Shown: positions 30,777-58,083 of the stretch, piece after piece
Layout of the letters: each line of letters begins with the position of its first letter
How positions within the stretch are numbered: position 1 is the first letter of the stretch
Source: Candidatus Rifleibacteriota bacterium
GTDB taxonomy: Bacteria > Muiribacteriota > Ozemobacteria > Ozemobacterales > Ozemobacteraceae
Direction of reading: 5' to 3'
Assembly: GCA_028689875.1 (NCBI GenBank)
Contig: JAQVCG010000002.1
Coordinates: forward strand, 3,086-67,085
DNA: 64,000 bases
Notes under the pieces: model-generated
Databases searched by the model: none
Told to the model about the DNA's origin: nothing
The model's input: only the letters and a program-made list of their open reading frames with translations
Position numbers and translations under genes: made by a program

Positions 30777-31355
30777 ATGAGCAGGCAGGAAAAAAGTGAT
30801 GTTGAGCTAGTAAAACTTGTGCTTAGCGGAGAATGCGAAGCATACTCTGCTTTGGTACAAAGATATGAAAAGCTAGTCTTCAGTTTTTTGTTGTCTCGTA
30901 TGAATTCTATTCATGATATCGAAGATATTGTCCAAGATTCTTTTGTTAAGGCTTACAAGCATTTGGCAAGCTTTGATTGTGAACGTAAGTTTTCGGCTTG
31001 GCTGTTGACTATTGCACGAAACATAATGATCGACAGTCGTCGTAAGTCGAGCAGGGATTTACCTTCAACCGATTTGGTTAATGACGTGCTTTTAACTGAT
31101 TCAGCAAAGGAAGAAAGTGAACAACCGGCCGATATTTTGATTAGACGTGAGCGATTTCGTAAAATTCTGATGTTGATTCGAGAATTGCCCGAAGAATTTA
31201 AGACGCCTTTCCTTTTGCGAATTGTTAACGAGATGAGCTATCAAGACATTGCCGATTCAATTGGAATTCCGCTTCAGACGGTAAAAAACAGAATCTTTAA
31301 AGCTAGAACTTTACTCAGAGAAAAAAGGGAAAAAAAAGATGAAATGCCTAACTAA
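30777..31355 (+). CDS. ECF (group IV) RNA polymerase sigma factor
   Basis: A 192-aa ORF. The region 2 pattern reads DIEDIVQDSFVKAYKHLASFDCERKFSAWLLTIARNIMIDSRRK. The region 4 HTH reads MSYQDIADSIGIPLQTVKNRIFKAR. Confidence 0.8.
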   Translation: MSRQEKSDVELVKLVLSGECEAYSALVQRYEKLVFSFLLSRMNSIHDIEDIVQDSFVKAYKHLASFDCERKFSAWLLTIARNIMIDSRRKSSRDLPSTDLVNDVLLTDSAKEESEQPADILIRRERFRKILMLIRELPEEFKTPFLLRIVNEMSYQDIADSIGIPLQTVKNRIFKARTLLREKREKKDEMPN

Positions 31356-32397
31356 AGAAAAATTGATTCTTTACGTGGAAGCCCTGATATCAGACGACGG
31401 AGCTTTAGGCAATACCCATTCTGTGAAAGAATTAAAAAAACATCTTGAAACCTGCAAGAGTTGCTCTGATTCTGTAAATTCTATGATTGAAGAAGACAAA
31501 GTCTTAAAAGAAGAGATCGGCAAGTTGTTTGAACGGCATTCGCAGGCCGGCGCAATCATGGAAAAAGTTCGCAAAATGCCGTTGCCTCAAAAAACGTCTT
31601 CATCTTGGTCGCCCGAATTGGTTAAGCTGTTTTTTAAATGGTTTTTCCCAGCTTTGGCGCTGTTTTTGATTGCAATAATATCTTTTATGAGATTGCCTTC
31701 AAAAGAAGATAAAATTCGTAAAAATGTTACTCTGGTTTCATTACGGGCACTTGATTCGAGCTCGTATTATAACAATGCATCTGTTCTTGGGCCTGTGTTT
31801 GATAAGGTCGAAATAGACGAATTGTCTGGATTTGGATTAAACGGCAAATTCAAAATGACTCTAGAGAACGATTCATTATCAGAACTTAACATAGTCGGTA
31901 GTATGAGCGTAAAAATTGATGACAGATCTTTTTTGAGTTTTGAGGGTCAGGATATAAATATTGAACTAATTAATGGGCGTGATTTACCTTTGTCAGTAAA
32001 CGGGGCATTGAAAATTGTAAGCAAAGACCATAAAATTAGTATTGAGCGCAAACTAGAAAAACCTGAAGAATCACTTGAAACCGGTAAAATCGACGAGGCT
32101 TCAGTAGACGCCGTCGTTAAGGCAGGCACAAAGGCATTAGCACCGAGCAACGATAACATACTTCCCGAAGACTTGCCTTCTTATAAGAAAAACACAGAAC
32201 AAGAAAAAGAAAATTTTGGGGCAAAATTGAAATTCAGATTGCGAAGTTTGCCTGAGGCTATTTACATCAAGCCTGAAGAAATTAGCTCGGAGGGCGTTGA
32301 CGTTTCGGATGATTCATCATACCATGATGATAAGACTGCTTTAACAGAAGAAAGTTATAAACCTTTCGACGGTAAAGCGTTTAAATATAAGGACTGA
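31339..32397 (+). CDS. membrane-spanning anti-sigma factor with N-terminal zinc-finger (ZAS-like HxxxCxxC)
   Basis: A 352-aa ORF overlapping the sigma gene by 17 nt. It contains HLETCKSCSD (H-x3-C-x2-C) within the first 45 aa, a single TM helix (FFPALALFLIAIISFMRL at ~95-115), and a ~235-aa extracytoplasmic domain. Confidence 0.6.
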   Translation: MKCLTKEKLILYVEALISDDGALGNTHSVKELKKHLETCKSCSDSVNSMIEEDKVLKEEIGKLFERHSQAGAIMEKVRKMPLPQKTSSSWSPELVKLFFKWFFPALALFLIAIISFMRLPSKEDKIRKNVTLVSLRALDSSSYYNNASVLGPVFDKVEIDELSGFGLNGKFKMTLENDSLSELNIVGSMSVKIDDRSFLSFEGQDINIELINGRDLPLSVNGALKIVSKDHKISIERKLEKPEESLETGKIDEASVDAVVKAGTKALAPSNDNILPEDLPSYKKNTEQEKENFGAKLKFRLRSLPEAIYIKPEEISSEGVDVSDDSSYHDDKTALTEESYKPFDGKAFKYKD

Positions 32398-32399
32398 AA

Positions 32400-32897
32400 A
32401 TGAGTGAAACTGCGTTTAATCGGCGCGCCTTTACAATGATCGAGGTCGTTGTTGCCGTAATGCTTATTGCAATGGCGTTTGTGCCGATGCTGAATTTGTT
32501 TAAATTTGGTAGTCAGGGAACGGTTAACAATGTTAACGAAGTTACTGCCACGAATTACGCCTCTGACTTAGTTAATTTTGTAAGAGAGATTCAGCATTAT
32601 AAGCTTGAAGAAGTTATTAAAGATAAAATTGAGCTGAGTGGCGACACAAAAATTAAAGACTTTTTCACTCAACAGTTAAAGTTGAACCCGCCGCCGCTCG
32701 TTGAAGAGCCTTTTGAAAGAAGTATTGAAATTAAACGCTATGATGGTGCGCCTAAGAATTGGCTGGGAGCTATAATAGCAGTAATTAAGAAACGACAGGT
32801 TGTGAATAGTTTTCTTTTTTCTGTGACCGTTACTTTCCCTCGACCATCTAAGTCAGGTAAAGATAAAGTGAAGCTGTTTTCGATGGTGGTTGAGTAA
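32400..32897 (+). CDS. pseudopilin / type IV pilin-like protein (prepilin-type N-terminal domain)
   Basis: A 165-aa ORF. The N-terminus MSETAFNRRAFTMIEVVVAVMLIAMAFVP has a basic leader, an F-T-M-I-E core with Glu at +5, and a hydrophobic helix. Position -1 is Ala rather than Gly. Confidence 0.6.
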   Translation: MSETAFNRRAFTMIEVVVAVMLIAMAFVPMLNLFKFGSQGTVNNVNEVTATNYASDLVNFVREIQHYKLEEVIKDKIELSGDTKIKDFFTQQLKLNPPPLVEEPFERSIEIKRYDGAPKNWLGAIIAVIKKRQVVNSFLFSVTVTFPRPSKSGKDKVKLFSMVVE

Positions 32898-33502
32898 TGA
32901 AAAACGCAAAAAATAAACTTGGTTTTTCGATGACAGAAATAATGGTTATAGTTGTGGTGGCAAGTATGATGGCCACCGTGGGTTATAAAATAATGTCGAC
33001 GGTTTTTTCGCACTTTTCAAAGAGCCAAAGCAAGCTGACTAACCTAAGAATGGCTAACGTCGCAGTTGAAAGGATAAAGTCAGATATAAGGTCTGCTGTT
33101 ATTCCGGCAAGTGAAAGTGAGAAACCTAAAATTGAAGATAAAAAATGTAGCTTTTGTATAACTGACAATAAGGGCAAAAACACCAGGTCTATGGTCGAGT
33201 ATGAGTTTAAAAACAACGCTCTGACGCGAACATACAACGGAGAAAGCAGAAATCTTACGGGTAAAGTGCAAATTACAGATATGAAATTTAGCGAAGTAGT
33301 TGAGGAAGAAAGTAAAAACAGGGCTTTATCAATAAAAATTACTGTAGACAGAGACAAAGACCTAGAGGGACGTACAAAATCGAATAAAATGAATGTGGTA
33401 GAATTAGAAACTATTTTTTACCCGAAGTTTTATGAAGAGTGTTTATCTGTCGAGGAAAAATACTGGAACAATGCAAGGCGAAATGCCACAGGAGGAGTAT
33501 AA
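32897..33502 (+). CDS. pseudopilin / type IV pilin-like protein (prepilin-type N-terminal cleavage/methylation domain)
   Basis: A 201-aa ORF. The N-terminus MKNAKNKLGFSMTEIMVIVVVASMMATVGY is a canonical G|FSMTE prepilin peptidase site. It overlaps the upstream pilin stop by 1 nt. Confidence 0.65.
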   Translation: MKNAKNKLGFSMTEIMVIVVVASMMATVGYKIMSTVFSHFSKSQSKLTNLRMANVAVERIKSDIRSAVIPASESEKPKIEDKKCSFCITDNKGKNTRSMVEYEFKNNALTRTYNGESRNLTGKVQITDMKFSEVVEEESKNRALSIKITVDRDKDLEGRTKSNKMNVVELETIFYPKFYEECLSVEEKYWNNARRNATGGV

Positions 33503-33966
33503 TGAAAAAGTCTGTCTTTCTTTTAGTTGCAGTGATCGTTCTTTTTGCAGCATCGCTTGATGCAAAAACTCATACAATAAAAACCGGAGACACCCTCTGG
33601 GATTTAGCAGCCACTAATTATGGCGACCCGACTCTTTACACTGTTTTATTAGAGGTAAACGGCATCACAAATCCGAGAACAATATTAAATGGAACCGTTA
33701 TTGTTATACCAGATAAAAGCACAATGAAAGAAATTGCCAACGAAACAGACAAGACTAAACGCAAAAATTTGATAAAAAATGCAAGCGGTAATAAAGGAAA
33801 TTCAGATGTTTCTGAAGATACTAACCCGAATACAAGTAATCAGCCAAAAGATCAGGTTTCTCGCAAGAGAGTTAAGCTCAACGAACGAGATCTATCTTTT
33901 GAAGGTGTTCTCGGTGGCCCTAAGACTACAGCCGACACTTTGATTAAGGTAAACGAAACAAAATAA
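33502..33966 (+). CDS. secreted LysM-domain protein
   Basis: The track ORF begins at 33439. I place the start at the ATG at 33502-33504. That ATG overlaps the upstream stop as TAATG and is preceded by GGAGGAG 5 nt upstream. A signal peptide MKKSVFLLVAVIVLFAASLDA is followed by a LysM motif HTIKTGDTLWDLAATNYGDPTLYTVLLEVNGITNPRTILNGTVIVIP. The C-terminus is low-complexity and N/K/S-rich. Confidence 0.65.
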   Translation: MKKSVFLLVAVIVLFAASLDAKTHTIKTGDTLWDLAATNYGDPTLYTVLLEVNGITNPRTILNGTVIVIPDKSTMKEIANETDKTKRKNLIKNASGNKGNSDVSEDTNPNTSNQPKDQVSRKRVKLNERDLSFEGVLGGPKTTADTLIKVNETK

Positions 33967-33987
33967 GAGTTTAATCAATTAAAAAAA

Positions 33988-34019
33988 GGTAATATGAATA
34001 TATTCATGTTACCTTTTTT
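33988..34019 (+). terminator. rho-independent terminator after the LysM gene
   Basis: A 12-bp stem, GGTAATATGAAT (33988-33999) pairing with ATTCATGTTACC (34002-34013), has one G-U pair and a tight loop. It is followed by TTTTTT (34014-34019) and preceded by an A-run, so it could act bidirectionally. Confidence 0.6.
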
Positions 34020-34028
34020 CTATTAATG

Positions 34029-34057
34029 TTGACTTTTATTTTTATGAAATGTATTCT
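34029..34057 (+). promoter_or_regulatory. putative sigma70-type promoter of the glutamate mutase operon
   Basis: TTGACT (34029-34034), a 17-nt spacer, and TATTCT (34052-34057). This implies a ~115-nt 5' leader before glmS at 34174. The leader contains a 6-bp hairpin, CTGTAA-TGTT-TTACAG, at 34130-34145. Confidence 0.35.
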
Positions 34058-34173
34058 AAATACTGTTTGAGACTATATAATTAAAAACTCGATAGGCTTT
34101 TACGGTTTTATAATGTGTGAGTGTTTAAGACTGTAATGTTTTACAGGTTTATCGATAATCAAGGAAAGAAATT

Positions 34174-34596
34174 ATGTCGACACCGTACAACATTGTTCTC
34201 GGAGTAATCGGTTCAGATTGTCATTCGGTAGGAAACAAAATTCTAGAAGCGTATTTTACCGAAAATGGTTTCAATGTAACTAATTTAGGTGTTATGGTGA
34301 GCCAGGAAGAATTTATTGCAGCCGCCATTGAGACCGGCGCAAAAGCCATTTTGGTTTCGAGTTTATACGGGCACGGCGAAATTGACTGTGCCGGTTTGCG
34401 CGAAAAGTGCATCGAAAAAGGCTTAGAAGACATAATACTATATGTTGGTGGCAACTTGGTTGTTGGTAAAGTTCCATTTGAACAAGTTGTAGAAAAATTT
34501 CAAAAAATGGGTTTTGATCGCGTTTTCAGCAATGAAGGTTCTCTTGATGAAGAAGCTGAATTGTTGCGAAAGGATATTCAAGAAAGACTAAAATGA
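34174..34596 (+). CDS. glmS: glutamate mutase sigma (S) subunit, B12-binding (methylaspartate mutase small subunit)
   Basis: A 140-aa ORF. Its [99 protein letters not shown] aligns almost residue-for-residue in pattern with Clostridium GlmS ([23 protein letters not shown]...VSSLYGQGEIDCKGLREKC, from memory). This includes the DxHxxG cobalamin-binding motif (SDCHSVG). RBS AAGGAAAG. Confidence 0.9.
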
Positions 34597-36002
34597 TTCC
34601 TCAAAAGATTATCTGTGTTGATATCGGCTCGACATACACAAAAGGCGCTGTTTTCAACCCGACAGAGGATCGTTTTAATGTGAGCGCCCGCGCGGTTGTG
34701 CCTACCACGGTAAATTACCTTCCGGATGGTTTTTATAAGGTTCTTGAGGCGCTGATCCCCGGCTCTGGCTCAAAGCAGGCTTATGATAAAGCGGAATTTC
34801 CCGTTTTCTTTTCTTCGTCCGCTAAGGGCGGCCTTAAAATTGCCGTAATCGGGCTGGTGCCTGAGATGTCTCTAAATATCGCTCGTTTGGCAGCATTCTC
34901 GGCCGGTGCAAGGGTTTGTGCCGCTTTCCCATACCGCTTGGGCAAGGCTAATATTGCGCAAATCGAAAGTTTGGCGCCAGATATTCTGCTTTTCTGTGGC
35001 GGCACTGACGGCGGCAATGAACGCTACGCACTCGAAAATTCGAAAATGATTGCTGCCTCAAAATTTGCAGGCACCATAATTTATGCCGGGAATAATTTTG
35101 TGGCCGATGAAGTGGCTGAAACACTCTCTAACAAAGATATTGTGGTTACCGAAAACGTTATGCCCGATTTTGGCAAACTAAATATAGAGCCGGTCAGAGA
35201 CGCCATTAGAAAAGTTTTCTTAGAAAAAATTATTTCAGGGAAAGGCCTAGATGAGCTTGTCAAAAAGTTCGAAACCTTGCCTGTTCCAACGCCGCTCGCA
35301 GTTTTTAATCTTGCAAAGGCAATCGGCGAAAATGTTAAAGACTGGGATAACTTCGCCATTATCGATATGGGTGGCGCTACAACCGATTTTTATTCTTATA
35401 CCAATGCTTTTCATTATGACGGCGAAACAGTAATGAAGGGTATCTTAGAACCTATTTTGAAAAGAACCGTCGAAGGTGACCTCGGTATGAGGGTTAGCGC
35501 AGAATCAACTTACGAGACGGGAACAGATTATTTTGGCTCTATAGGCTTTGACGAAAGCAAATTAAACGAACTTAAAAATTATACTTTAAAAGTCTCTGAA
35601 TCACCCGAGTATTTGCCCGAAAATGAAAAAGAAAAAATGTTCGACCGTAGCTTGGCAGGAGCTTGTATTTATCATTCTTTGCTAAGACACGCCGGCACAA
35701 TTGAAGAAGTTTTCACAATTAAAGGCCGTATTTGGGCGCAAATAGGTAAAGATCTAAGAAAAATAAATAAAATAATTGGTACCGGTGGTTATTTGGCAGC
35801 CATGGGGCGAAACAATGAAAAGATTATTATTCCCTCTGAGCCAAGCACTCCCTGCGAAAAAATTCCCCTCTTACCACAAAAATTCACATATCACGCCGAT
35901 AACACATATATTTTGCCGCTTCTTGCCAACTTAGCGGAAAAATATCCAAAACAATGTGCTGTTACCGCAATAGAATCGTTGATCAATGAGCAGCAAAATT
36001 GA
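34593..36002 (+). CDS. glmL: glutamate mutase-associated protein GlmL/MutL (putative reactivating chaperone, ASKHA-like fold)
   Basis: A 469-aa ORF. It overlaps glmS by 4 nt and glmE by 4 nt, matching the conserved glmS-glmL-glmE order. Its size matches Clostridium GlmL (~460 aa). The N-terminal [16 protein letters not shown] resembles the ASKHA phosphate-1 motif. Confidence 0.75.
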
Positions 36003-37465
36003 ACGAAGGAGCCCCAACTGTGAGCGTTTACAAAATTAGTGACGAAAAATTTAACGAAATCCGCAATGAAATACTTGCAACCTGGCCGACCGGTAAAGAT
36101 ATTGACTTCGAGGAAGCAATCAAATATCAGCAGGTTATTCCCGAATCAAAAAACTTTGCTGTTGCAATGAAAAAGGCCGCTGAAGAAAAAAGAACTTTGC
36201 TGCAGCCCAGAGCCGGAGTTGCATTGGTGCCCGAACACATCACTTTGCTTAAATACCTCGAAACAGAGGGTGAAGCTGATTTGTTGCCAACAACAATCGA
36301 CGCATATACAAGATTAAATCGATACGAAAACGCCGCAGAAGGCGTTGAAAAATCGTTGAATGCCAGAACCTCACTGTTAAACGGGTTCCCGGCAGTAAAT
36401 CACGGCTTAGCCGGCTGCCGAATGGTCACTGAAGCTGTAAAATCACCGATTCAGGTGCGCCACGGCACTCCCGATGCCCGACTGCTTGCTGAAATAACAT
36501 TGGCAGGCGGCTTTACAAGCTTCGAGGGCGGCGGCATATCTTATAATATTCCATACGCTAAAAAAGTTCCGCTTCAAAAATCAATCGACGATTGGAAATA
36601 TGTTGACAGACTCGTCGGTAAATACGAAGAACGCGGCATTCATATAAATCGTGAACCGTTCGGCCCTCTTACCGGCACTCTGGTTCCACCCTGTGTAAGC
36701 CACGTTGTAGCTATCGTTGAAGGAATTTTGGCTTTGAGACAGGGCGTCAAATCAATTACACTCGGCTATGGTCAAGGCGGAAATTTAGTGCAGGACGTTT
36801 CGGCAATATTGTCACTTAAAGCACTTGCACACGAATATTTTGAACGCGAAGGTTTTAACGAATACGACCTTACAACTGTTTTCCATCAATGGATGGGCGG
36901 TTTCCCTCCTGATGAAGCAAAAGCTTTTGCTGTAATCAGTTTAGGCGCAACTGTTGCAGTATTATCAGGAGCCGATAAAGTTATCGTTAAAACACCTCAC
37001 GAAGCAAAAGGAATTCCGACAAAAGAAGCTAATGCACAGGGTATAAAAGCAACAAGACAAGCTGTTAATATGTTGCGTGACCAAAGATTCCCGGTGAGCG
37101 AAGAGCAAAACATCGAAACCGAACAGATTAAAAAGGAAGTTCGCAGTTTGATGGATGCAATTTATAGATTAGGTGAAGGCGATATAGAAAAAGGCGTGGT
37201 AGCAGCAGTAGAAGCTGGTGCGCTTGATGTTCCGTTTGCGCCTGCAGTATGCAATCACGGCAAAATTTTGCCAATGCGCGACAATAACGGTTACATCAGA
37301 ATATTTAACAAAGGCAATATGGCATTAAGCGATGAAATCATGGCATATCACCGCGAAAAACTTGAGGAACGCGCAAAAGTCGAAGGGCGAAATGTGTGCT
37401 TCCAAATGGTTACAGACGATATTTACGCAATAAGCAAAGGTGCTTTGGTAGGGAGACCAAGATGA
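35999..37465 (+). CDS. glmE: glutamate mutase epsilon (E) catalytic subunit (methylaspartate mutase large subunit)
   Basis: A 488-aa ORF in the conserved position between glmL and mal. Its size matches GlmE (~483 aa). It has a TIM-barrel-like composition. It is coupled to mal by an ATGA overlap. Confidence 0.85.
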   Translation: MNEGAPTVSVYKISDEKFNEIRNEILATWPTGKDIDFEEAIKYQQVIPESKNFAVAMKKAAEEKRTLLQPRAGVALVPEHITLLKYLETEGEADLLPTTIDAYTRLNRYENAAEGVEKSLNARTSLLNGFPAVNHGLAGCRMVTEAVKSPIQVRHGTPDARLLAEITLAGGFTSFEGGGISYNIPYAKKVPLQKSIDDWKYVDRLVGKYEERGIHINREPFGPLTGTLVPPCVSHVVAIVEGILALRQGVKSITLGYGQGGNLVQDVSAILSLKALAHEYFEREGFNEYDLTTVFHQWMGGFPPDEAKAFAVISLGATVAVLSGADKVIVKTPHEAKGIPTKEANAQGIKATRQAVNMLRDQRFPVSEEQNIETEQIKKEVRSLMDAIYRLGEGDIEKGVVAAVEAGALDVPFAPAVCNHGKILPMRDNNGYIRIFNKGNMALSDEIMAYHREKLEERAKVEGRNVCFQMVTDDIYAISKGALVGRPR

Positions 37466-38712
37466 GAATTTCAAAAGTAACGTTTTCTAGAGGTATTTCA
37501 GCATTTTATTTTGATGACCAGCGCGCAATTAAAAAGGGCGCAAAACACGACGGCTTTACTTATGTAGGTCAGCCCCTAACACAGGGTTTTACAAATATAA
37601 GACAGGCCGGACAGAGCATATCTATTATTATGCTACTCGAAGACGGGCAAATAGCGACTGGCGATTGCGCTGCAGTTCAGTATTCCGGCGCAGGCGGACG
37701 CGATCCCCTTTTCCTTGCTAACGAATTTATTCCTTTCTTGGAAAAACATATTAAACCGCACCTTGAAGGCATGGAAATCGGCACTTTCAGAGATATGAGC
37801 AAAAGGTTTTGCGAAATGAAAATTGAAGGAAAACCTTTGCATTCCGCAATTAAATACGGCTTGACCCAAGCATTGCTTGATGCGGTTGCAAAATCGCTCA
37901 GAATTATGCCTTGTGAAGTTGTGTGCAATGAATATAGCTTACCAATTATTGCAAAACGCGTGCCCATATTTGGACAGAGCGGCGATGACAGATATAACAA
38001 TGTTGACAAGATGCTTATAAAGGGCGTTGAAGCTTTGCCGCACGGCTTGATTAATAATGTCGAGGAAAAACTTGGCTTGCAGGGGGAAAAACTCAGAGAA
38101 TACGTCAGATGGCTTGTAAAACGTGTTAAAACCCTCAGAGCTTGCGACAGTTACAAACCTGATTTGCACATAGACGTGTACGGAACTATCGGACAACTTT
38201 TTGAAAATGATATGATAAAAGTTGCTGACTATGTGGCATCGCTTGAAAAAGACGCCGAAGACCTGCAACTATACATCGAAGGACCCGTTGATGTTGAAGC
38301 AAAATTGCCGCAAATCGAAGCGCTCAAAACAATCACTGATCGCTTAAGAGCTATGGGCTCAAATGTTAAAATTGTTGCTGACGAATGGTGCAACACGTAT
38401 GAAGATATTAAAGATTTTACCGATGCAAAATCTTGCCATATGGTACAAATCAAAACGCCCGATTTGGGCGGAATACAGAATATTGTAGAAAGCGTTATTT
38501 ATTGTAAGCAGAATGGCATGGAAGCTTATCAGGGCGGAACATGCAATGAAACTGACAATACAGCGCGTATTTGTGTGCATTTGGCGATGGCTGCACAAGC
38601 CGAAAGAATGCTAGCAAAACCGGGTATGGGCTTTGACGAAGGCTATACAATTGTAAATAACGAAATGGAACGAATTATTTCCGTTCTCAAAATGAAATAC
38701 GGAGAAAAATGA
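37462..38712 (+). CDS. mal: 3-methylaspartate ammonia-lyase (methylaspartase)
   Basis: The track ORF starts at 37396. I place the start at the ATG at 37462, which overlaps the glmE TGA, giving 416 aa (Clostridium MAL is ~413 aa). The N-terminus MRISKVTFSRGISAFYFDDQRAIKKGA parallels MKIVDVLCTPGLTGFYFDDQ.AIKKGA from memory. The fold is enolase-superfamily. Confidence 0.85.
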   Translation: MRISKVTFSRGISAFYFDDQRAIKKGAKHDGFTYVGQPLTQGFTNIRQAGQSISIIMLLEDGQIATGDCAAVQYSGAGGRDPLFLANEFIPFLEKHIKPHLEGMEIGTFRDMSKRFCEMKIEGKPLHSAIKYGLTQALLDAVAKSLRIMPCEVVCNEYSLPIIAKRVPIFGQSGDDRYNNVDKMLIKGVEALPHGLINNVEEKLGLQGEKLREYVRWLVKRVKTLRACDSYKPDLHIDVYGTIGQLFENDMIKVADYVASLEKDAEDLQLYIEGPVDVEAKLPQIEALKTITDRLRAMGSNVKIVADEWCNTYEDIKDFTDAKSCHMVQIKTPDLGGIQNIVESVIYCKQNGMEAYQGGTCNETDNTARICVHLAMAAQAERMLAKPGMGFDEGYTIVNNEMERIISVLKMKYGEK

Positions 38713-38713
38713 A

Positions 38714-40090
38714 ATGACTAAGAAAGAATTTAAGGTTCTGTCGCCAACCGCCATACTTGGTTATGGTTTTCCTGAATCATCTTTTAAGCGCGGAATCGAG
38801 AAAAAACCCGATTTGATTGCTGTTGACGCCGGTTCAACTGATCCGGGTCCTTTCTATTTGGGTGCTGGAAAAGCTTTTACAGACAGAGAATTCGTTAAAC
38901 GCGATTTGAAATACATGATTTGTGCCGGCGTTGAACATAAAATACCTGTAGTGGTTGGAACTGCAGGCGGTTCGGGGGCTGATGTGCACCTTGAATGGTG
39001 CAGACAAATCGTTGAAGAAATAGCCAAAGAAAATAAACTAAGCTTTTCTATGGCCGTTATACCATGCGATGTTTCGAAAGAAAACGTTAAAATGGCAATT
39101 GACGAAGGCAGAATAGTGCCTTTGGCATATGTTCCGGAACTAACCAAAAAAGATGTTGATGACACAACTTACGTTGTGGCACAAATTGGCACGGACCCCA
39201 TTATAGAAGCCCTTAAAGATGGTTGCGACGTTGTTCTGGCAGGACGATGCTATGATCCGGCTTGCTTCGCAGCACTTCCTATTATGAAAGGCTATGACCC
39301 AGGATTAGCACTGCATATGGGCAAAATTTTGGAATGTGCAGCGATTGCGGCAACACCGGGTTCCGGTTCTGACTGCGCAATGGGCACTTTAACCGAAGAT
39401 TCATTTATTCTCGAAGCTCTTTCTCCGGACAGAAACTTTACTTGCGAATCTGCTGCGGCACATACTTTGTATGAAAAAACCGACCCATACCACTTGCCGG
39501 GGCCGGGTGGAGAAATTAACCTTGAAAATTGCTCCTTTAAAGATGTGGGCAACGGAAGGGTTGAAGTCAAGGGCAGCAAATTTGTGCCAACAGAAAAGTT
39601 TTATCTGAAACTTGAGGGTGCAAAATGCATCGGCTATCGCACCATAAGCATTGCCGGAACGCACGACCCGATAATGATTGCAAATATCGATAAGGTTTTG
39701 CAGGAAGTTAAAGACAGAATTAACGTTATTTCGGGTGACAGCAAAAGAAGCGATAACTTGTTTTTCCATGTATATGGTAAAAATGGTGTTATGGGCAGTC
39801 TTGAACCGAATCCGAATGTTAAATCGCATGAGCTTTGCATAGTAATTGAAGCTCTGTGTCCAACTCAAGATCAGGCAAATACCCTTTGCAGCGTGGCTCG
39901 CTCGACAATGTTGCATTATGGTTACGAAGGGCGCGTTTCAACTGCCGGTAATCTGGCGTTCCCGTTCTCTCCATCTGACATAACAGTCGGAAAAGTATTC
40001 GAGTTTTCAATCTATCACCTTATGGATACAAAAAATCAAGTGCTTTTCAAACATCGTATCGAAAAATACGAAAATGGAACGAGGAAATAA
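38714..40090 (+). CDS. DUF1446 (AtuA-like) family protein
   Basis: A 458-aa ORF starting 2 nt after the mal stop. The N-terminal ILGYGFPESSFKRGIEKKPDLIAVDAGSTDPGPFYLGAGK fits the AtuA/DUF1446 N-terminal pattern from memory. It is followed immediately by a DUF4387 gene, the usual partner of DUF1446. Confidence 0.6.
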   Translation: MTKKEFKVLSPTAILGYGFPESSFKRGIEKKPDLIAVDAGSTDPGPFYLGAGKAFTDREFVKRDLKYMICAGVEHKIPVVVGTAGGSGADVHLEWCRQIVEEIAKENKLSFSMAVIPCDVSKENVKMAIDEGRIVPLAYVPELTKKDVDDTTYVVAQIGTDPIIEALKDGCDVVLAGRCYDPACFAALPIMKGYDPGLALHMGKILECAAIAATPGSGSDCAMGTLTEDSFILEALSPDRNFTCESAAAHTLYEKTDPYHLPGPGGEINLENCSFKDVGNGRVEVKGSKFVPTEKFYLKLEGAKCIGYRTISIAGTHDPIMIANIDKVLQEVKDRINVISGDSKRSDNLFFHVYGKNGVMGSLEPNPNVKSHELCIVIEALCPTQDQANTLCSVARSTMLHYGYEGRVSTAGNLAFPFSPSDITVGKVFEFSIYHLMDTKNQVLFKHRIEKYENGTRK

Positions 40091-40093
40091 AAG

Positions 40094-40405
40094 ATGAAAA
40101 GAAATATTATTGAAGCCGCAAAGGTTATTAGATCCAAAAACTCCGGTCCTTACGAGCTTACTTTCGATATAATGTTCAAAAGCAAAGAATATTTTGAACA
40201 TTTTAAAGAAAATAAAATAATAAACAAAAAAATGTTTGCCGAACTGTATAAAATTCCTGAAGAAGACATTATGGTTATTGTTTGGTTTGCTCCGGCAAAT
40301 GCTGTTAAAGTAACCATTAAAAGACCTATTTCTTCCGGTGCACCGGGCGAAACAGATATATACGGGGCTCAACAACATGCTCCATTGTTTAATATCGAGT
40401 TTTAA
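40094..40405 (+). CDS. DUF4387 family small protein (AtuA-associated)
   Basis: A 103-aa ORF starting 4 nt after the DUF1446 stop. RSKNSGPYELTFDIMF...ELYKIPEEDIMVIVWFAPANAVKVTIKRPISSGAPGETDIYGAQQHAPL matches the DUF4387 consensus (SKNaGPfelTfDi ... KiT.PRp..sG..gerDvhGaQQh.PL) from memory. Confidence 0.6.
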   Translation: MKRNIIEAAKVIRSKNSGPYELTFDIMFKSKEYFEHFKENKIINKKMFAELYKIPEEDIMVIVWFAPANAVKVTIKRPISSGAPGETDIYGAQQHAPLFNIEF

Positions 40406-40408
40406 GTT

Positions 40409-41380
40409 ATGAGGCAAACTTTTCTGAACTCTAACTCGGCTAATTTCGAGACCTTGATGTATGCCACATACTACGCGCCGCGAGGGCGTCCGCGAATGTA
40501 TAACCTTGGCAGTTTGCTCTCTAACAGATATTTGAGGCCAACTGACTTGGTTATCGGCATTATTGGGGCAGAAGGATCAGGAAAGTCTACGCTCATAAAG
40601 GGCTTGTTTCCTGGACTAGAGCTCACTAACGACGATGACGGGGTCAACATGAAATCGGCGCCGATTTATGATTTTCATCCCGATAATTATTTCGCGCCCC
40701 ATACTTTTCATCTCGATATTCGCTATGAACTGGCCTTTCATCAGCCGTTTGAAATTATAGAAGCTGTGAATAATGCAATCGAGAACGGCAGACGTGTGAT
40801 AATGGAACACTTCGATTTGATATTTGATCAGTTAGGGTATAACGCTCAGCTGATTTTTGCGATCGGAGAAGAACTTATCGTAGCACGCCCGACAGTCTTT
40901 GGTCCTTTCCCTGCAGAAATTAAAAAACACGCCGACAAATCAGCTGTGTTCAGAAGAATGGCTCACAGCGCCGAAGATATTACAAGCTACGTGCTTATGG
41001 TAGACTATAAATATACCCGAAAAGTATTACACTCAGACGTAAGGCACGGTTTTGTAATAAAGTTTCCTGAAAAGCCCGACATTCCGATTTCGGAGCTAGA
41101 AACAAAGGTAAATGCTATAATCGAAGAAAATAAAGCAATTAACTGTGCAGGAAAAGACAAAATCAATATTGGTGATTGGCAAATGTTTTGCACAGGCTCT
41201 AGAACGCATATGAAAAGCAGCGGCGAAATTAAAAATTTCAGACTGTGGCAAGATTATGTGTATGACCCAATTGCTAAAGAATATATGCTGGTTGGAATGG
41301 TCGGACCTAAACAGGGCGCCAGCATAACGGCTATTCATTATTTCGATGAAGATTATTTAAGCGGAAACACGCAGGAATGA
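40409..41380 (+). CDS. P-loop NTPase, AAA_28/NadR-kinase-like putative small-molecule kinase
   Basis: A 323-aa track ORF starting 4 nt after the DUF4387 stop. In-frame ATGs at 40457 and 40496 are alternative starts. The Walker A VIGIIGAEGSGKSTLIKG resembles the ribosylnicotinamide-kinase / AAA_28 P-loop (IGIIGGESSGKST). No other motif is recognised. Confidence 0.45.
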   Translation: MRQTFLNSNSANFETLMYATYYAPRGRPRMYNLGSLLSNRYLRPTDLVIGIIGAEGSGKSTLIKGLFPGLELTNDDDGVNMKSAPIYDFHPDNYFAPHTFHLDIRYELAFHQPFEIIEAVNNAIENGRRVIMEHFDLIFDQLGYNAQLIFAIGEELIVARPTVFGPFPAEIKKHADKSAVFRRMAHSAEDITSYVLMVDYKYTRKVLHSDVRHGFVIKFPEKPDIPISELETKVNAIIEENKAINCAGKDKINIGDWQMFCTGSRTHMKSSGEIKNFRLWQDYVYDPIAKEYMLVGMVGPKQGASITAIHYFDEDYLSGNTQE

Positions 41381-41400
41381 TCGCTTAATACACAAAAAAA

Positions 41401-41432
41401 GACCCCGATAATTTATCGGGGTCTTTGCTTTT
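41401..41432. terminator. bidirectional rho-independent terminator between convergent genes
   Basis: A perfect 9-bp stem, GACCCCGAT (41401-41409) pairing with ATCGGGGTC (41415-41423), has a 5-nt loop AATTT. An AAAAAAA run lies upstream and TTTGCTTTT downstream. It would end the glm-operon transcript on the plus strand and the lipoprotein transcript on the minus strand. Confidence 0.7.
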
Positions 41433-41447
41433 ACGAAAAGACGATAA

Positions 41448-42482
41448 TCAGGGTATGATTATGTCATGAGTTAGACCTTCATCTGCGTTCTGAGGAACGG
41501 TTAAAGTAGTGCTTTCGTAGCGAAGTTCATTTCCGGGATCAGTGAATACTTTAATTTTATAAGATCCTGCCGGCAGTGTAAGTAGGTAGTTAATGCTACT
41601 TCCTGTTAACACTGCATAGGAAAGATCGCCTTGAACTATCTCGCCTGTTGAAGCGTCTTCGACGCGAAGATCGTAAATAATAGTAGTGCCGGTGCCTACC
41701 AGACCTGTGCCGCTGACTGTGCCCGCTATTGAATATAGCTGACCGCGTTGCTGAAAAGCGTGTACAGCTTGAGTAAGATATTGGTTAATCGAATTTGCAA
41801 ATTCAGCGCCGTTATAAATATTTATCCCAGATGAGAGCAATGTTTCAATTTGTAATGTCAAAGAAGCTATCTGACTTTCATTAAAATTACTTAAGAAGTT
41901 TGAGAAAGTAACTGTCGCATCGTCTGCTTTCATTTTTTCAAAAAGCATCGCTTTTGCTGTTGAGTCAGGGTTTACATTGCAGGCTATTTCGTCGCCGCTG
42001 ATTGCGTTAATTTTTTGTTGTGTTGTTATAGTGAATAAAGATTTTAGTATCGGATTATCGGCAATAGTTACAACGATTTCATAATTCTCGGCCAGCAAAA
42101 GTGCTTTTAACATTTCTTTATCAGCATTTAAAGAAAGTGTTGCCCTTATTGCTGAGTCGTTTGGCGTTATATCAGATGCTTGAAAAGAATAATATACAGT
42201 TGAAACCCTTGCACCGTTTTCAAATTTGTAAACTGTTACAGTAGCAGATGCTAAATTAAATGGTGTCGTGTCGCCTCTTAACCCTGCTGCTCTTATAGAT
42301 GCGGCGAAGCTGTTAGAAAGGCTGATATCAAAGTCTAAGTCAACTGTTTTGTCTTTGACAGCAGAAAGTAGCGTATCTTCAAGGGTAGCTGTTGAGCTTG
42401 AACCCGAACTTCCGCAGCCTACGAAAGAAAGAGAAACAAAAGTCACCAAAATAAGCAAAACTAGTTTTTTCAAAGTACACAC
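41448..42482 (-). CDS. lipoprotein of unknown function
   Basis: A 344-aa ORF. The N-terminus MCTLKKLVLLILVTFVSLSFVGCGSSGSSS has a lipobox (FVGC) and a Ser/Gly linker. The C-terminal ~70 aa (SYKIKVFTDPGNELRYESTTLTV) look like a beta-sandwich domain. Confidence 0.5.
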   Translation of the reverse strand: MCTLKKLVLLILVTFVSLSFVGCGSSGSSSTATLEDTLLSAVKDKTVDLDFDISLSNSFAASIRAAGLRGDTTPFNLASATVTVYKFENGARVSTVYYSFQASDITPNDSAIRATLSLNADKEMLKALLLAENYEIVVTIADNPILKSLFTITTQQKINAISGDEIACNVNPDSTAKAMLFEKMKADDATVTFSNFLSNFNESQIASLTLQIETLLSSGINIYNGAEFANSINQYLTQAVHAFQQRGQLYSIAGTVSGTGLVGTGTTIIYDLRVEDASTGEIVQGDLSYAVLTGSSINYLLTLPAGSYKIKVFTDPGNELRYESTTLTVPQNADEGLTHDIIIP

Positions 42483-42555
42483 CTCTATAAGTAGAATAAA
42501 ACAAACACAAGTATATTTTACATGTTTTTGTGTGTCGTTGCAACCCCTAATTGCC

Positions 42556-43272
42556 TTAAATAACCGTTTTAAACCCCAACTTTAATAATAAATTAGTGAA
42601 ATCATCGTGCAAATTTGCTTTTAAATTCATTTCTTGCCCCGTTGTGGGGTGCACAAAGCTTAGCTCTTTTGCGTGTAGCATCAGCCTGTTTAAACCAAAT
42701 TTTTCGGCTAATATTCTATTATGAAACCCGTCACCATGTTGATGGTCACCTATCATATGATGAAAAATATGCTTCATGTGCCTTCTTATTTGTCTGCTTC
42801 TACCCGTAAGAGGTGTAATTTCAAGCAACGAATATCTCGAAGTAGGGTGGGGCCTTACCGGAACATCAATCTCTACTTTTTCAAGCAGTTTATATTCTGT
42901 AATGGCTTCTTTCGCCTCTTGCTGCTTGCTCTTCTTTTTGTCGGTCATTTTATCCCACAAATCTTTAAGCGGATAATTAATTACCTCATGTTCTTCTGTA
43001 AACCCTCTCACCAACCCCCAATATTTTTTCTCAACCTCGCGGCTCATAAAGGCTTCGCCCAATTTCTTAGCAACATCTGCCGACAAACCAAATAGCAATA
43101 TTCCCGAAGTAGGCTTATCTAACCTGTGAACCGGGTAAACTAACTGTCCGAGCATATCACGCACAATATGCATTGCGCTTTCAGTCTCATATTTATCGAT
43201 TAAACTCGGGTGCACGAGCAGTCCCGCAGGCTTGTTTATTGCTACAATGTCTTCATCACGATATATAATCAT
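42556..43272 (-). CDS. truC: tRNA pseudouridine synthase C-like (RluA family, no S4 domain)
   Basis: A 238-aa ORF. MIIYRDEDIVAINKPAGLLVH, HRLDKPTSGILLFGLSADVAKKL and TGRSRQIRRHMKHIFHHMIGDHQHGD parallel E. coli TruC (MLEILYQDEWLVAVNKPSGWLVH; HRLDRPTSGVLLMGLSSEAGRLL; TGRKHQLRRHLAHLRHPIIGDSKHGD, from memory). Confidence 0.7.
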   Translation of the reverse strand: MIIYRDEDIVAINKPAGLLVHPSLIDKYETESAMHIVRDMLGQLVYPVHRLDKPTSGILLFGLSADVAKKLGEAFMSREVEKKYWGLVRGFTEEHEVINYPLKDLWDKMTDKKKSKQQEAKEAITEYKLLEKVEIDVPVRPHPTSRYSLLEITPLTGRSRQIRRHMKHIFHHMIGDHQHGDGFHNRILAEKFGLNRLMLHAKELSFVHPTTGQEMNLKANLHDDFTNLLLKLGFKTVI

Positions 43273-44294
43273 TAGTTGAAAACACGCTTCAAAGTTTCTT
43301 TTGTATCCTTTTTGAACTCTGCCTGTAACTTTTCCGGCCTAACCTGCTTAACAGAAGTAATCTCGCCGTTCTCATCGAATGAAACTAGAGTCGAAAAAAG
43401 TCCGTCTGTTTCTGACAGCATTGCGCCGTATCTCATATCAAAAAATCTCACCTGAGGCAAACCCGATTCATTTATTGAGCTGCTTGCTCTAACCATATCC
43501 ATCGCAAAAAGCTTGAACAACTTGCTGTGCTCGTGTGCTGAAGCCTTTTGAACATATTCGCCTTTGTCAGATTTCGCCAATCGCATCGGAGCAATAGGCA
43601 CATCTGAACCTTTTTTTAAGTAAGTAACCATAAAATCACCGTTAGCATCGCGCCCCACAACCCTAAAAATACTTATGTTCATAATTGTTGGCATTGCACG
43701 CACTTCAACAGCTTCAAATCCCTGCTGTTGAAACATATTTTTGCCTACTTCCGCCAAATGCTGCGAATTATGATAGCCCCACGCTGAGTAGCCAAGGCTT
43801 AATCCTAACGCCGCAATAGAAAGCAGCTTAACTTTTTTCGGTTGAGCTAAACCAAATATCCCCAAAATAGTCACAATCAACAATGGCATCGAAACAACTA
43901 AATCCAGTATGGAAACACAATCAATGGCAAATCGCTTATCGGTTATGGGCCAAAGCATCGCCGTGCCATAGCTGGTAAACCAATCTATAATAGGGTGGGT
44001 GACCAACGCAAGCATCGTTATAACTATCCATTCCCGCTTTTTTAAACCATTTTTCGCCATATTACCAACAAAAATTCCAAGCGGAATCGCAAAGATAAAG
44101 GTCAGAATTATCGAGTGAGTCGGCCCCCTATGATACTTTAAAGAAGCCCAAGGCCCCCACAAACGTGCAATTACATCAAAATCCGGCAAAAGGCCCAAAA
44201 TAAAGCCGTAAATACTGACCTTTTTGCCGCCTTTATGTCCGTAAGCAGCCTGAGAAACCGCCGCACCCAATAATCCTTGTGTCACTAAATCCAT
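43272..44294 (-). CDS. DUF457-family membrane-bound metal-dependent hydrolase with extra C-terminal soluble domain
   Basis: A 340-aa ORF. The N-terminal ~180 aa have 4-5 TM helices with LLPDFD, HRGPTHS and H..ID..T....LWP motifs typical of YdjM/YbcI-like DUF457. The C-terminal ~160 aa are soluble and of unknown fold. The start lies 2 nt downstream of the oligopeptidase A stop. Confidence 0.55.
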   Translation of the reverse strand: MDLVTQGLLGAAVSQAAYGHKGGKKVSIYGFILGLLPDFDVIARLWGPWASLKYHRGPTHSIILTFIFAIPLGIFVGNMAKNGLKKREWIVITMLALVTHPIIDWFTSYGTAMLWPITDKRFAIDCVSILDLVVSMPLLIVTILGIFGLAQPKKVKLLSIAALGLSLGYSAWGYHNSQHLAEVGKNMFQQQGFEAVEVRAMPTIMNISIFRVVGRDANGDFMVTYLKKGSDVPIAPMRLAKSDKGEYVQKASAHEHSKLFKLFAMDMVRASSSINESGLPQVRFFDMRYGAMLSETDGLFSTLVSFDENGEITSVKQVRPEKLQAEFKKDTKETLKRVFN

Positions 44295-44295
44295 T

Positions 44296-46374: not shown

Positions 46375-46531
46375 TTTATACCTTTCGGTTGTTTTACTGT
46401 GACTAAAATATTTTGAAAACCATAACTTACAACCCGTTTCACGCTATTTTACATTTATTTAACAAGAATTTCAATTATTTCTAATATACGCAATCATATT
46501 TATATGAACTTAACTTTCAAGCTTCTGTTTT

Positions 46532-46560
46532 TTGACTTTGAAGATTTAAAGTGTTAAATT
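46532..46560 (+). promoter_or_regulatory. putative promoter of the pilus/T2SS-like operon, possibly producing a leaderless transcript
   Basis: TTGACT (46532-46537), a 17-nt spacer, and TAAATT (46555-46560). The annotated ATG at 46567 lies only 6 nt downstream of the -10 element, with no SD. The ~190-bp region is a divergent promoter region shared with prlC. Confidence 0.25.
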
Positions 46561-46566
46561 CAATAT

Positions 46567-49834: not shown

Positions 49835-50193
49835 TGATTTATCGTAAAGGTATAACTCTTGTTGAAATTTTAATTGCCGCTAGTTTGTGCGCTTTTATGC
49901 TTGTTTCAATAAATAAGCTAGCCGGAAATCTGAATAATACATTGAAAAAAACTGATAAAAACTCAGTTGCGATATTTATGATAGAAAGTATAAAAAACAA
50001 GGTAAAAGCTGACCTATCGAGTGGAATGGTTACATATGATGCTATAAATCCTGATATTACACAATTTACAAATTCAAAAGATTGGCACATCAAAGTAATA
50101 AAAAGAGAACAAAATGGAGTTAAATTAGTATTATTCAATAAAGATCTGTATTCCGGTTTAGTATATGAATTTGGAGTTTTTGAAAATGAATAG
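49834..50193 (+). CDS. pilin/pseudopilin with prepilin-type leader
   Basis: The track ORF starts at 49813. The ATG at 49834 overlaps the upstream stop (TAATG) and gives a 119-aa protein. Its MIYRKG|ITLVEILIAASLCAFMLV leader has Gly at -1, Glu at +5 and a hydrophobic helix. Confidence 0.6.
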   Translation: MIYRKGITLVEILIAASLCAFMLVSINKLAGNLNNTLKKTDKNSVAIFMIESIKNKVKADLSSGMVTYDAINPDITQFTNSKDWHIKVIKREQNGVKLVLFNKDLYSGLVYEFGVFENE

Positions 50194-50599: not shown

Positions 50600-50828
50600 C
50601 ATAAATAAACGTAAAGGATTCGTTCTCTTCTTAACCTTTTCTTTTGGTATATTTCTATTGTATTCTGCTTTTTCAGTAAGTTTTAATGACGTAGTGGCTT
50701 TGTGTAGAAAACAAAACCACTGCCTCGACTTGGCAGGAAGAATTAAAAATAGTGAAGCTAAAACTACTTTTATAGATCTTTCAGACTCCGAGTGTGAAAT
50801 TCAAAACAAATATGACAGCAACAGATAA
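50592..50828 (+). CDS. small pilin-like protein lacking Glu+5 (minor pseudopilin-like)
   Basis: A 78-aa ORF. MNNINKRKG|FVLFLTFSFGIFLLYSAF has a basic leader, Gly at -1, a Phe at +1 and a hydrophobic helix but no Glu5, as in GspK-type minor pseudopilins. It overlaps the upstream gene by 8 nt. Confidence 0.4.
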   Translation: MNNINKRKGFVLFLTFSFGIFLLYSAFSVSFNDVVALCRKQNHCLDLAGRIKNSEAKTTFIDLSDSECEIQNKYDSNR

Positions 50829-52716: not shown

Positions 52717-52728
52717 GCTGTAAATTGA

Positions 52729-53535: not shown

Positions 53536-53536
53536 A

Positions 53537-55951: not shown

Positions 55952-55954
55952 CAT

Positions 55955-58075: not shown

Positions 58076-58083
58076 TTGTCTTA

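Follow-up and report, generated by a model that had tools for sequence, protein, structure and literature searches.

The clostridial citramalate lyase of the Clostridium tetanomorphum pathway is a CitD/E/F complex that resembles citrate lyase and bears an acyl-carrier prosthetic group. CmlAB occupies the same position in the pathway, from (S)-citramalate to pyruvate and acetate, but is unrelated to CitD/E/F in sequence and fold and binds ATP/ADP instead. Two structures of this enzyme, both released in October 2025, show it in complex with AMPPNP and citramalate (9ERQ) and with ADP and pyruvate (9EVF). In a preprint, Raoultella planticola cmlAB was used in vivo to split citramalate into pyruvate and acetate, growth of E. 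coli on mesaconate being Cml-dependent and label reaching acetyl-CoA (bioRxiv 10.64898/2026.01.16.699985). The function of CmlAB is taken here from the names and titles of the PDB entries and from this one preprint employing the enzyme. Genes of this type had already drawn attention in E. coli O157:H7, where a DUF1446 gene follows glmS-glmL-glmE-mal and the cluster includes FumD, a characterised mesaconase; Kronen & Berg (2015; PMC4682846) pointed out the DUF1446 gene downstream of mal, in Dictyoglomus too, and explicitly named the fate of citramalate as the missing step. In Prevotella intermedia, mal and AtuA genes are induced together (PMC10434189).

We analyzed a window of 64,000 nucleotides from a Riflebacteria genome, a phylum other than that of the enterobacterial clusters. 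Seven densely packed genes on the + strand, all present where the sequence-only reading had placed them, begin with the same glmS-glmL-glmE-mal-DUF1446 arrangement as in E. coli O157:H7 and continue with a DUF4387 gene and a P-loop gene, the intergenic distances being -4 to +17 nt once the starts of glmE and mal are corrected. The first gene, glmS (mutS, 34174-34596), encodes the B12-binding small subunit of glutamate (methylaspartate) mutase (PF02310, 57.1 bits; NF002612, 213.8, cut-off 110; TIGR01501, 199.5, cut-off 135.8). It overlaps by 4 nt with glmL (mutL, 34593-36002), the product of which, the mutase accessory protein, matched PF13941 with 420 bits and TIGR01319 with 441.7 (cut-off 204), and scored 458.1 bits against the equivalog NF040745, slightly below its cut-off of 475. 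The catalytic large subunit is encoded by glmE (mutE, 36020-37465; PF06368, 709 bits; TIGR01503, 745.4, cut-off 390, residues 11-487 aligning with model positions 4-480). Its mechanical open reading frame opens at TTG 35999, and a ribosome-binding site, aaggag (36006-36011), precedes GTG 36020, which is most likely the start. Similarly, the mechanical reading frame of mal (37462-38712, 3-methylaspartate ammonia-lyase, MAL; PF05034, 231.8 bits; PF07476, 379.1; TIGR01502, 573.2, cut-off 286) opens at GTG 37396, TIGR01502 begins at residue 24 of this long frame, and ATG 37462, overlapping the stop codon of glmE as ATGA, is most likely the true start. The DUF1446/AtuA-family gene (38714-40090, 1 nt past the mal stop) and the DUF4387 gene (40094-40405, 3 nt further on) are, by homology, cmlA and cmlB, for the large and small subunits of citramalate lyase. 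The seventh gene (40409-41380) follows after another 3-nt gap.

An intrinsic-terminator-like hairpin at 41398-41426 (bidirectional; 13-bp stem, 6 G-C pairs) closes both the operon and a convergent gene (41448-42482), and is the sole convincing terminator of the region, where terminator-like matches otherwise did not exceed their frequency in shuffled sequence. A weak candidate sigma-70-like promoter at 34029-34057 (+ strand; TTGACT-17-TATTCT, 9/12 matches) lies in the 207-nt gap 5' of glmS. It carries no evidential weight, because such matches are as common in shuffled sequence (37 sites in the region vs 35.7 expected). A search of the leader 5' of glmS for Rfam elements such as riboswitches found none. 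The operon is probably transcribed as a single unit, and the proposal that mal and the downstream genes form one module is borne out by their packing, the terminal hairpin and a gene order conserved across genomes.

Both family assignments of the DUF pair held up in Pfam searches: the cmlA product matched AtuA (PF07287) with 79.7 bits (threshold 22.8) and the cmlB product DUF4387 (PF14330) with 140.9 (threshold 27). Since the PF07287 match was best only over aa 64-212, the cmlA product represents a divergent AtuA subfamily. Far stronger was its match to the chain named "Citramalate lyase, subunit A (cmlA)" in 9ERQ/9EVF (E 2.4e-187, 626 bits, aa 4-451 vs 3-448), and a profile built from 15 CmlA orthologues retrieved CmlA with E 5.8e-227. 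The cmlB product aligned over its aa 1-103 with residues 1-103 of 9erq_B, "Citramalate lyase, subunit B (cmlB)" (E 8.5e-30), and a predicted model shared the CmlAB fold (TM 0.92 against 9ERQ/9EVF). The window CmlA shares 61% identity with the crystallised enzyme, which in turn shares ~97% with the DUF1446 protein encoded in the Klebsiella glmSLE-mal cluster, and at least 150 positions are invariant among the 15 orthologues, which span several phyla. These matches make it very probable that 38714-40405 encodes a two-subunit citramalate lyase, CmlAB, within a methylaspartate glutamate-fermentation operon, and we infer from them that the Riflebacteria orthologue would cleave citramalate. The AtuA protein of acyclic terpene utilisation in Pseudomonas/Thauera belongs to PF07287 as well, and the AtuA-pathway reaction likewise frees acetate from a tertiary 3-hydroxy acid, analogous to citramalate cleavage; however, the AtuA substrate is a CoA ester and that of CmlA, by homology, a free dicarboxylate, and the window protein, with its modest match to the AtuA model, falls in a separate, highly conserved, mal-linked subfamily. 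AtuA proteins had been described in the sequence-only reading as lacking any assigned function and known from the atu context alone, a view overtaken by the CmlA structures and by the mal-DUF1446 linkage noted in 2015 (PMC4682846).

The operon would serve glutamate fermentation via the methylaspartate pathway, a reading in which we have high confidence: the S and E subunits of glutamate mutase and MAL are present, their scores against NF002612, TIGR01503 and TIGR01502 lying far over the cut-offs, and the citramalate cleavage step is covered, by homology, by CmlAB orthologues. GlmS/GlmE with the accessory GlmL would convert L-glutamate to (2S,3S)-3-methylaspartate, which MAL would deaminate to mesaconate. 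Hydration to (S)-citramalate would fall to a mesaconase of the class I fumarase type, encoded outside the window and presumably elsewhere in the genome, and CmlAB, dispensing with a CoA/ACP prosthetic group such as the clostridial CitDEF-type enzyme carries, would finally split citramalate into pyruvate and acetate. The ATP bound by CmlAB would activate a carboxylate, possibly via an acyl phosphate, enabling C-C cleavage; the earlier suggestion to include ATP in assays of the pair was sound, given the nucleotides in both solved complexes. As encoded in the window, the pathway lacks the mesaconase step. No class I fumarase was found within the 64 kb, either as Fumerase/Fumerase_C domains or by tblastn with FumD or split fumarase, and none was found in two near-identical metagenome contigs. 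Nor were clostridial or haloarchaeal follow-on enzymes found beside mal, as had been noted from the start: among the window ORFs scanned (at least 120 aa), there was no Pfam match to citrate-lyase alpha, beta or ACP subunits, and CoA-transferase and MaoC/enoyl-CoA-hydratase domains, expected for the succinyl-CoA:mesaconate CoA-transferase and mesaconyl-CoA hydratase of the haloarchaeal methylaspartate cycle, were not found. Unlike the clostridial system, the window also has no CitC/CitG/CitX-type activation genes.

It had been proposed that DUF1446/DUF4387, together with the P-loop protein, stand in for mesaconase and citramalate lyase in a new branch, turning mesaconate into a product other than pyruvate and acetate. 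In favour of this, the window contains neither a fumarase nor a citrate-lyase-type gene, and the pair is tightly coupled to mal. The gene neighbourhoods of related loci argue otherwise. Across 160 such loci the usual order was (GntR)-glmS-glmL-glmE-mal-cmlA-cmlB-Ploop-class I fumarase. Among 80 genome loci, mal lay 5' of cmlA in 66/72 and the full glmS-L-E-mal set was present in 55/63; in all 75 loci whose flank was long enough, a DUF4387 gene stood 3' of the DUF1446 gene, and class I fumarase genes were nearby in 43/64. In sister Riflebacteria, as in most other phyla, the fumarase gene lies directly 3' of the P-loop gene, and E. coli has the order glmS-glmL-glmE-mal-AtuA-DUF4387-DAACS-class I fumarase-cobO (1,123 of 5,426 complete genomes). 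Given this usual order, in E. coli and sister Riflebacteria CmlAB stands alongside a mesaconase rather than instead of one, and it is the window's own lineage that departs from its sisters in lacking the adjacent gene. Moreover, a citramalate lyase with solved structures is an orthologue of the pair, and the products formed in vivo are pyruvate and acetate (bioRxiv 10.64898/2026.01.16.699985). The new branch is largely refuted by these co-occurrence data, and we consider it highly improbable. What survives of the proposal is that the pair acts on an intermediate of the pathway, citramalate being among the candidates named; the new branch from mesaconate is unsupported. The pair corresponds to the classical fourth step, catalyzed by an enzyme that is not a relative of the clostridial lyase, already in the PDB and already used in vivo, and the operon is a further member of a known system.

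Both DUF genes match CmlAB and therefore the seventh gene alone is left without an assigned function. It also distinguishes the window from the enterobacterial CmlAB cluster, in which cmlAB is followed by a DAACS transporter, glutaminase, FumD and CobO, with no P-loop gene. Its product had no Pfam or NCBIfam family match and no PDB sequence match. The AAA_28/NadR-kinase label first attached to it was rejected, as AAA_28 scored 13 bits (E 0.12, cut-off 27) and the Walker A motif alone was matched. The protein appears to combine an N-terminal TsaE/YjeE-like P-loop ATPase domain (Walker A at aa 53-60) with a C-terminal AlaX/ThrRS-editing-like (tRNA_SAD-like) domain at about aa 165-300, in which H186/D190 and C261/H267 are putative metal ligands. 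Its scores against TsaE (YjeE) and AlaX/tRNA_SAD all lie under the family thresholds, and it differs from AlaX/ThrRS-N2 editing domains in that HxxxH is replaced by H186-x3-D190 (HxxxD) and CxxxH carries a two-residue insertion. No entry for a fusion of TsaE-like and AlaX-like domains in a metabolic-operon context was found in Pfam, NCBIfam or the PDB. The family comprises >2,500 proteins from at least eight phyla (41-77% identity), ~95% of the sampled members being located in a methylaspartate/cmlAB operon, and no mention of it was found in the literature searched, in searches not aimed at the family specifically. We see evenly balanced chances that the seventh gene encodes an accessory factor dedicated to the methylaspartate pathway, with a role not yet in print; the product would then be a pathway-specific ATPase with a metal-binding AlaX-like domain, which might maintain the activity of the Fe-S mesaconase or shield translation from 3-methylaspartate. 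Any single mechanism is less probable than this general claim.

The position of the gene immediately 5' of a class I fumarase gene, in 40/54 P-loop-centred loci, suggests that the protein may maintain or mature the oxygen-labile [4Fe-4S] mesaconase, for example by Fe delivery or ATP-driven cluster repair via the His/Asp/Cys/His site. Outside the Enterobacteria, 26/27 cmlAB loci with an adjacent fumarase had the P-loop gene vs 9/18 without one (p = 4e-4, phylogeny ignored), three rearranged clusters (L063, L081 and L065) keep it beside the fumarase genes and not beside cmlB, and L116 is a bare pair of P-loop and fumarase genes. The conservation of H186, E189, D190, C261 and H267 in at least 97% of 124 members also fits such a site. 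We nevertheless regard this role as conceivable rather than likely: the gene occurs without an adjacent fumarase in the window and in ~14 other loci, it is lacking from Enterobacteria and from cmlAB-fumarase clusters without glm/mal (L064, L078 and pM7a), and the fold relatives of the protein are tRNA-related, none of them a known chaperone for Fe-S clusters or metals.

Its place next to the lyase genes, with cmlA and cmlB upstream in 47/50 P-loop-centred loci and 3 nt separating it from cmlB in the window, would also suit an accessory subunit or activator of CmlAB or glutamate mutase, acting for instance in nucleotide exchange or reactivation and not on fumarase, and CmlAB is itself a user of adenine nucleotides. 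However, enterobacterial CmlAB functions in E. coli without the P-loop protein, the presumed accessory role for the mutase is already filled by GlmL, and the gene parts from cmlB in the rearranged clusters, all of which makes this role unlikely.

The tRNA-related fold raises another alternative, that the protein is a trans-editing or quality-control factor clearing tRNA mischarged with a pathway intermediate such as 3-methylaspartate. The motif C261-x5-H267, with SSGEIKNF after it, is similar to the CxxxH region of tRNA_SAD, sub-threshold matches to which were seen in 18/23 family members, and outside the Enterobacteria the P-loop gene was present in 35/40 mal-linked cmlAB loci vs 0/5 without mal (p = 2e-4), an association in which phylogeny and the co-occurring fumarase are confounding factors. 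We judge it quite improbable, as both editing motifs are altered, Enterobacteria bear the pathway without the gene, and tRNA binding by the protein is purely hypothetical. H267, missing in Prevotella members and in L071, is not universal, which counts against both the editing role and the mesaconase-directed one.

DUF1446/DUF4387 pairs of the same subfamily also occur without glm/mal (L056, L064, L066, L074, L080 and the Klebsiella plasmid pM7a), so that the CmlAB subfamily is not restricted to glutamate fermentation.

ORF calling and family models bore out the seven co-directional genes recognized in the sequence-only reading (window 34174-41380). The first four are assigned unambiguously by curated family models: glmS scored 213.8 bits with NF002612 (cut-off 110), glmL 441.7 with TIGR01319 (cut-off 204; the GlmL equivalog model gave 458.1, slightly below its cut-off of 475), glmE 745.4 with TIGR01503 (cut-off 390) and mal 573.2 with TIGR01502 (cut-off 286). 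The Pfam assignments proposed for the next two genes were also confirmed, the fifth (38714-40090) matching AtuA/DUF1446 with 79.7 bits against 22.8, with a best stretch spanning aa 64-212 only, and the sixth (40094-40405) matching DUF4387 with 140.9 bits against 27. The seventh (40409-41380) gave no match to the family models apart from its Walker A motif. The most likely start of glmE is GTG 36020, preceded by an aaggag ribosome-binding site and 17 nt away from glmL; a start at TTG 35999 would instead overlap glmL by 4 nt. For mal the most likely start is ATG 37462, which shares the sequence ATGA with the stop codon of glmE; after these corrections the spacing between the operon genes is -4 to +17 nt. 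A hairpin at 41398-41426, with a 13-bp stem, is the sole convincing terminator of the operon region and, this hairpin aside, promoter and terminator scans yielded no more matches than shuffled sequence. The promoter proposed earlier at the head of the operon, a 9/12 match of a kind as common in shuffled sequence, was therefore not retained. An Rfam scan of the window gave no match, with no riboswitch or RNA element in the 207-nt leader. The top protein match, 95% identical, carries a name that assigns it to a Candidatus Riflebacteria MAG. A GntR-family regulator gene, which in at least 25 related loci precedes glmS, is absent from the entire window, where the upstream neighbour of glmS (33439-34173 region) encodes a LysM-domain protein closing an ECF-sigma/pilin-like gene set (30777-33966).

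Searches of PDB sequences placed the DUF1446/DUF4387 pair among enzymes of known structure. The 458-aa product of the fifth gene (CmlA) matched chain A of 9ERQ/9EVF over its full length (E 2.4e-187, 626 bits) and the 103-aa product of the sixth (CmlB) matched chain B (E 8.5e-30). Entry 9ERQ, titled 'Citramalate lyase - AMPPNP - citramalate complex', was released on 2025-10-22, and 9EVF, titled 'Citramalate lyase - ADP - pyruvate complex', on 2025-10-08. The DUF1446 protein encoded in a Klebsiella glmSLE-mal cluster shares ~97% identity with the crystallised CmlA. In the literature searched we found no primary paper on CmlAB, only a preprint using the enzyme, made from two genes, cmlAB, that were a gift of the Berg laboratory; in it, growth of E. 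coli on mesaconate was Cml-dependent and acetyl-CoA was labelled. Judged by these matches, the pair is most likely a CoA-independent, nucleotide-binding citramalate lyase, so that the question of its function had already been answered by others. The earlier proposal that it acts on mesaconate, citramalate or a derivative was thus in the right neighbourhood, but the idea of a previously undescribed branch is not borne out, as the mal-DUF1446 linkage has been in print since 2015 and CmlAB function is known from structures and in vivo use. The CmlA subfamily (>7,000 proteins at E<=1e-5) is unusually conserved, with 56-67% identity between phyla and ~150 positions that do not vary in a set of 15 diverse members. 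A tblastn search of plasmids with CmlB, made to see if canonical AtuA represents CmlA fused to CmlB, retrieved DUF4387 as separate genes only. An analogous acetate-releasing lyase reaction has been tentatively assigned to the wider AtuA family in terpene catabolism (PMC4847356), which fits the type of chemistry given to CmlAB.

A scan of GTDB species genomes with a CmlA alignment gave 528 confirmed loci, of which we took the best 80 forward; the remaining operon proteins were located in these by tblastn and by clustering of ORFs annotated with Pfam. Among these best 80, mal lay upstream of cmlA in 66 of the 72 loci with enough flank; the complete glmS-glmL-glmE-mal set was present in 55/63 and a DUF4387 gene followed cmlA in all 75 of 75. 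Where at least 3.5 kb of downstream sequence was available, the P-loop (seventh) gene was found in 37/64 loci and a class I fumarase in 43/64. The consensus order, GntR-glmS-glmL-glmE-mal-cmlA-cmlB-Ploop-fumarase, in which the fumarase is one fused gene or comes as separate N and C parts, recurs in Riflebacteria, Aminicenantes/Acidobacteriota, Spirochaetes, Planctomycetes, Bacteroidetes and Firmicutes, and the cultured Prevotella nigrescens carries a complete nine-gene version. In this species and in P. intermedia the operon reads glmS-glmL-glmE-mal-cmlA-cmlB-X-fumAB, X being the seventh gene. The E. coli cluster, present in 1,123 of 5,426 complete genomes, reads glmS-glmL-glmE-mal-AtuA-DUF4387-DAACS transporter-class I fumarase-cobO; a LysR gene is oriented divergently.

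The sequence-only reading had the pair standing in for a mesaconase. This does not hold, since class I fumarase genes accompany the pair in the same clusters, including those of E. coli and of sister Riflebacteria, and the class I fumarase of the E. coli cluster has been characterised as the mesaconase FumD (Kronen and Berg 2015, PMC4682846); the pair works alongside a mesaconase, not instead of one. By homology, GlmSE with GlmL would convert glutamate to 3-methylaspartate, MAL would release mesaconate from it, and CmlAB would cleave (S)-citramalate to pyruvate and acetate; the intermediate hydration would require a class I fumarase. Neither a fumarase nor a citrate-lyase-type, CoA-transferase or hydratase gene was found across the 64-kb window. 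In five sister Riflebacteria loci (L004, L005, L006, L008 and L013) a fumarase lies directly 3' of the P-loop gene. Two near-identical metagenome relatives of the window (L082 and L083), syntenic downstream, have none there, as in the window itself, which points to loss or relocation of the fumarase in the lineage of the window.

The operon is thus a Riflebacteria member of the methylaspartate pathway with a CmlAB-type lyase, a system first seen, without being understood, in the E. coli O157:H7 cluster. A DUF1446 gene downstream of mal was already noted for the E. coli cluster and Dictyoglomus, and the fate of citramalate was left unclear because Enterobacteria have no citramalyl-CoA lyase (PMC4682846), a gap that CmlAB, as identified by sequence, would fill. 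Compared with the enterobacterial cluster, the window has the TsaE/AlaX-like seventh gene but no transporter, glutaminase, CobO or adjacent mesaconase. Its lyase is unrelated to the clostridial citramalate lyase CitDEF, and only the first two enzymes are shared with the haloarchaeal methylaspartate cycle. The CmlAB version, rather than the CitDEF version, is the widespread one, being found in Riflebacteria, Aminicenantes/Acidobacteriota, Spirochaetes, Planctomycetes, Bacteroidetes (including cultured Prevotella), Firmicutes and Enterobacteria. As Pfam and NCBIfam still label cmlA and cmlB as AtuA-family/DUF, automated metabolic reconstructions can be expected to score the pathway as incomplete.

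In Prevotella intermedia, mal and AtuA genes are induced together: a methylaspartate ammonia-lyase gene and two 'AtuA family' genes (PIOMA14_II_0010-0012) rose 2.2-2.5-fold upon iron depletion (PMC10434189), which may bear on the idea that the operon relies on an Fe-S mesaconase. A same-subfamily DUF1446/DUF4387 pair (CmlB 58.6% identical) occurs without glm/mal on the Klebsiella quasipneumoniae conjugative plasmid pM7a (NZ_CP124867.1 33167-41226, locus L162), in the order LysR / atuA-DUF4387-aldehyde dehydrogenase-glucose 1-dehydrogenase-alcohol dehydrogenase-aldehyde dehydrogenase-fumarate hydratase; 12 Klebsiella plasmids match. The arrangement suggests a mobile route channelling another substrate into mesaconate or citramalate.

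Moderate interest remains in the AtuA/DUF4387 labels of public family databases and in the uncharacterised seventh gene. Outside the Enterobacteria, the operon nearly always carries this one further conserved gene, an unusual domain fusion and a target for study in a cultured organism. Its family has at least 2,534 members, the best matches being 55-77% identical and spread over many phyla, with 41-50% identity in Firmicutes and Bacteroidetes. The family search ruled out the NadR/AAA_28 kinase label given to it earlier. Sub-threshold Pfam matches were to TsaE in 20/23 members and to tRNA_SAD in 18/23, and fold comparison gave a TsaE-like fold. A role as B12 adenosyltransferase (CobO analogue) was rejected on this fold and on the co-occurrence of CobO-like genes (L058, L061 and L070). 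A profile search of PDB sequences gave no link between the C-terminal domain and AlaX, the link being at the level of fold and sub-threshold Pfam matches only. Across 124 family members, positions conserved at >=97% comprise the Walker A motif, N74, D76, H101, D103, E107, Q112, R129 and E133-H134-F135 and, in the AlaX-like domain, H186/E189/D190 and C261/R265/H267, which we read as altered versions of the zinc motifs HxxxH and CxxxH; Prevotella and one Firmicute have lost H267. For a protein with such a domain, tRNA-directed quality control against 3-methylaspartate can be envisaged, but we regard it as unlikely.

A second, independent scan of metagenome contigs, starting from the seventh protein, found cmlA and cmlB upstream in 47/50 loci, mal upstream in 40/42 and a class I fumarase downstream in 40/54. 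Among CmlA-centred loci outside the Enterobacteria, phylogeny being ignored, the P-loop gene was present in 35/40 with linked mal versus 0/5 without, and in 26/27 with an adjacent fumarase versus 9/18 without. That the protein serves CmlAB or the mutase as an accessory is a rather doubtful reading, although we rate it above tRNA quality control. Placed first among these hypotheses, and still tentatively, is a support factor for the Fe-S mesaconase: in rearranged clusters the P-loop gene moves along with the fumarase genes, and in one locus (L116, metagenome contig Ga0101944_10004967, 7893-10658) it is followed directly by a fused class I fumarase. Against such a role, the clusters of Enterobacteria, and those with cmlAB and a fumarase but no glm/mal, lack the P-loop gene. 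L116 is the only clear stand-alone pair found; the 8 kb upstream holds no cmlAB, mal or glm, and a divergent sigma-54 two-component system lies there. P-loop homologues 70-72% identical also stand alone, with no cmlAB nearby, in L085-L088 (for example, L088 2834-3811), among unrelated neighbours such as a pilin-like gene and a MatE transporter.

Elsewhere in the window, two M3 oligopeptidases that are paralogues of 692 aa (44296-46374 and 53537-55615), an S9 prolyl oligopeptidase (55955-58075) and an M55 D-aminopeptidase (19425-20315) make up a peptidase load that fits peptide/amino-acid fermentation. Large ORFs at 3186-5684, 20394-22649 and 28424-30736 (832, 751 and 770 aa) matched nothing in Pfam at E<=1e-3 to 1e-5. 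In a single 748-aa ORF (22679-24925), an extracellular solute-binding domain (SBP_bac_1) is joined to an ABC permease domain (BPD_transp_1); a second permease gene comes after it. On the minus strand, 6177-7577 encodes a HAD-type phosphatase (Hydrolase_3/S6PP) fused to NTPase_1 and adjoins a phosphomethylpyrimidine-kinase-like gene and a DUF1015 gene. G+C content is 0.40-0.44 over the operon and its downstream neighbours (34001-46000) versus 0.31-0.36 at 46001-64000.
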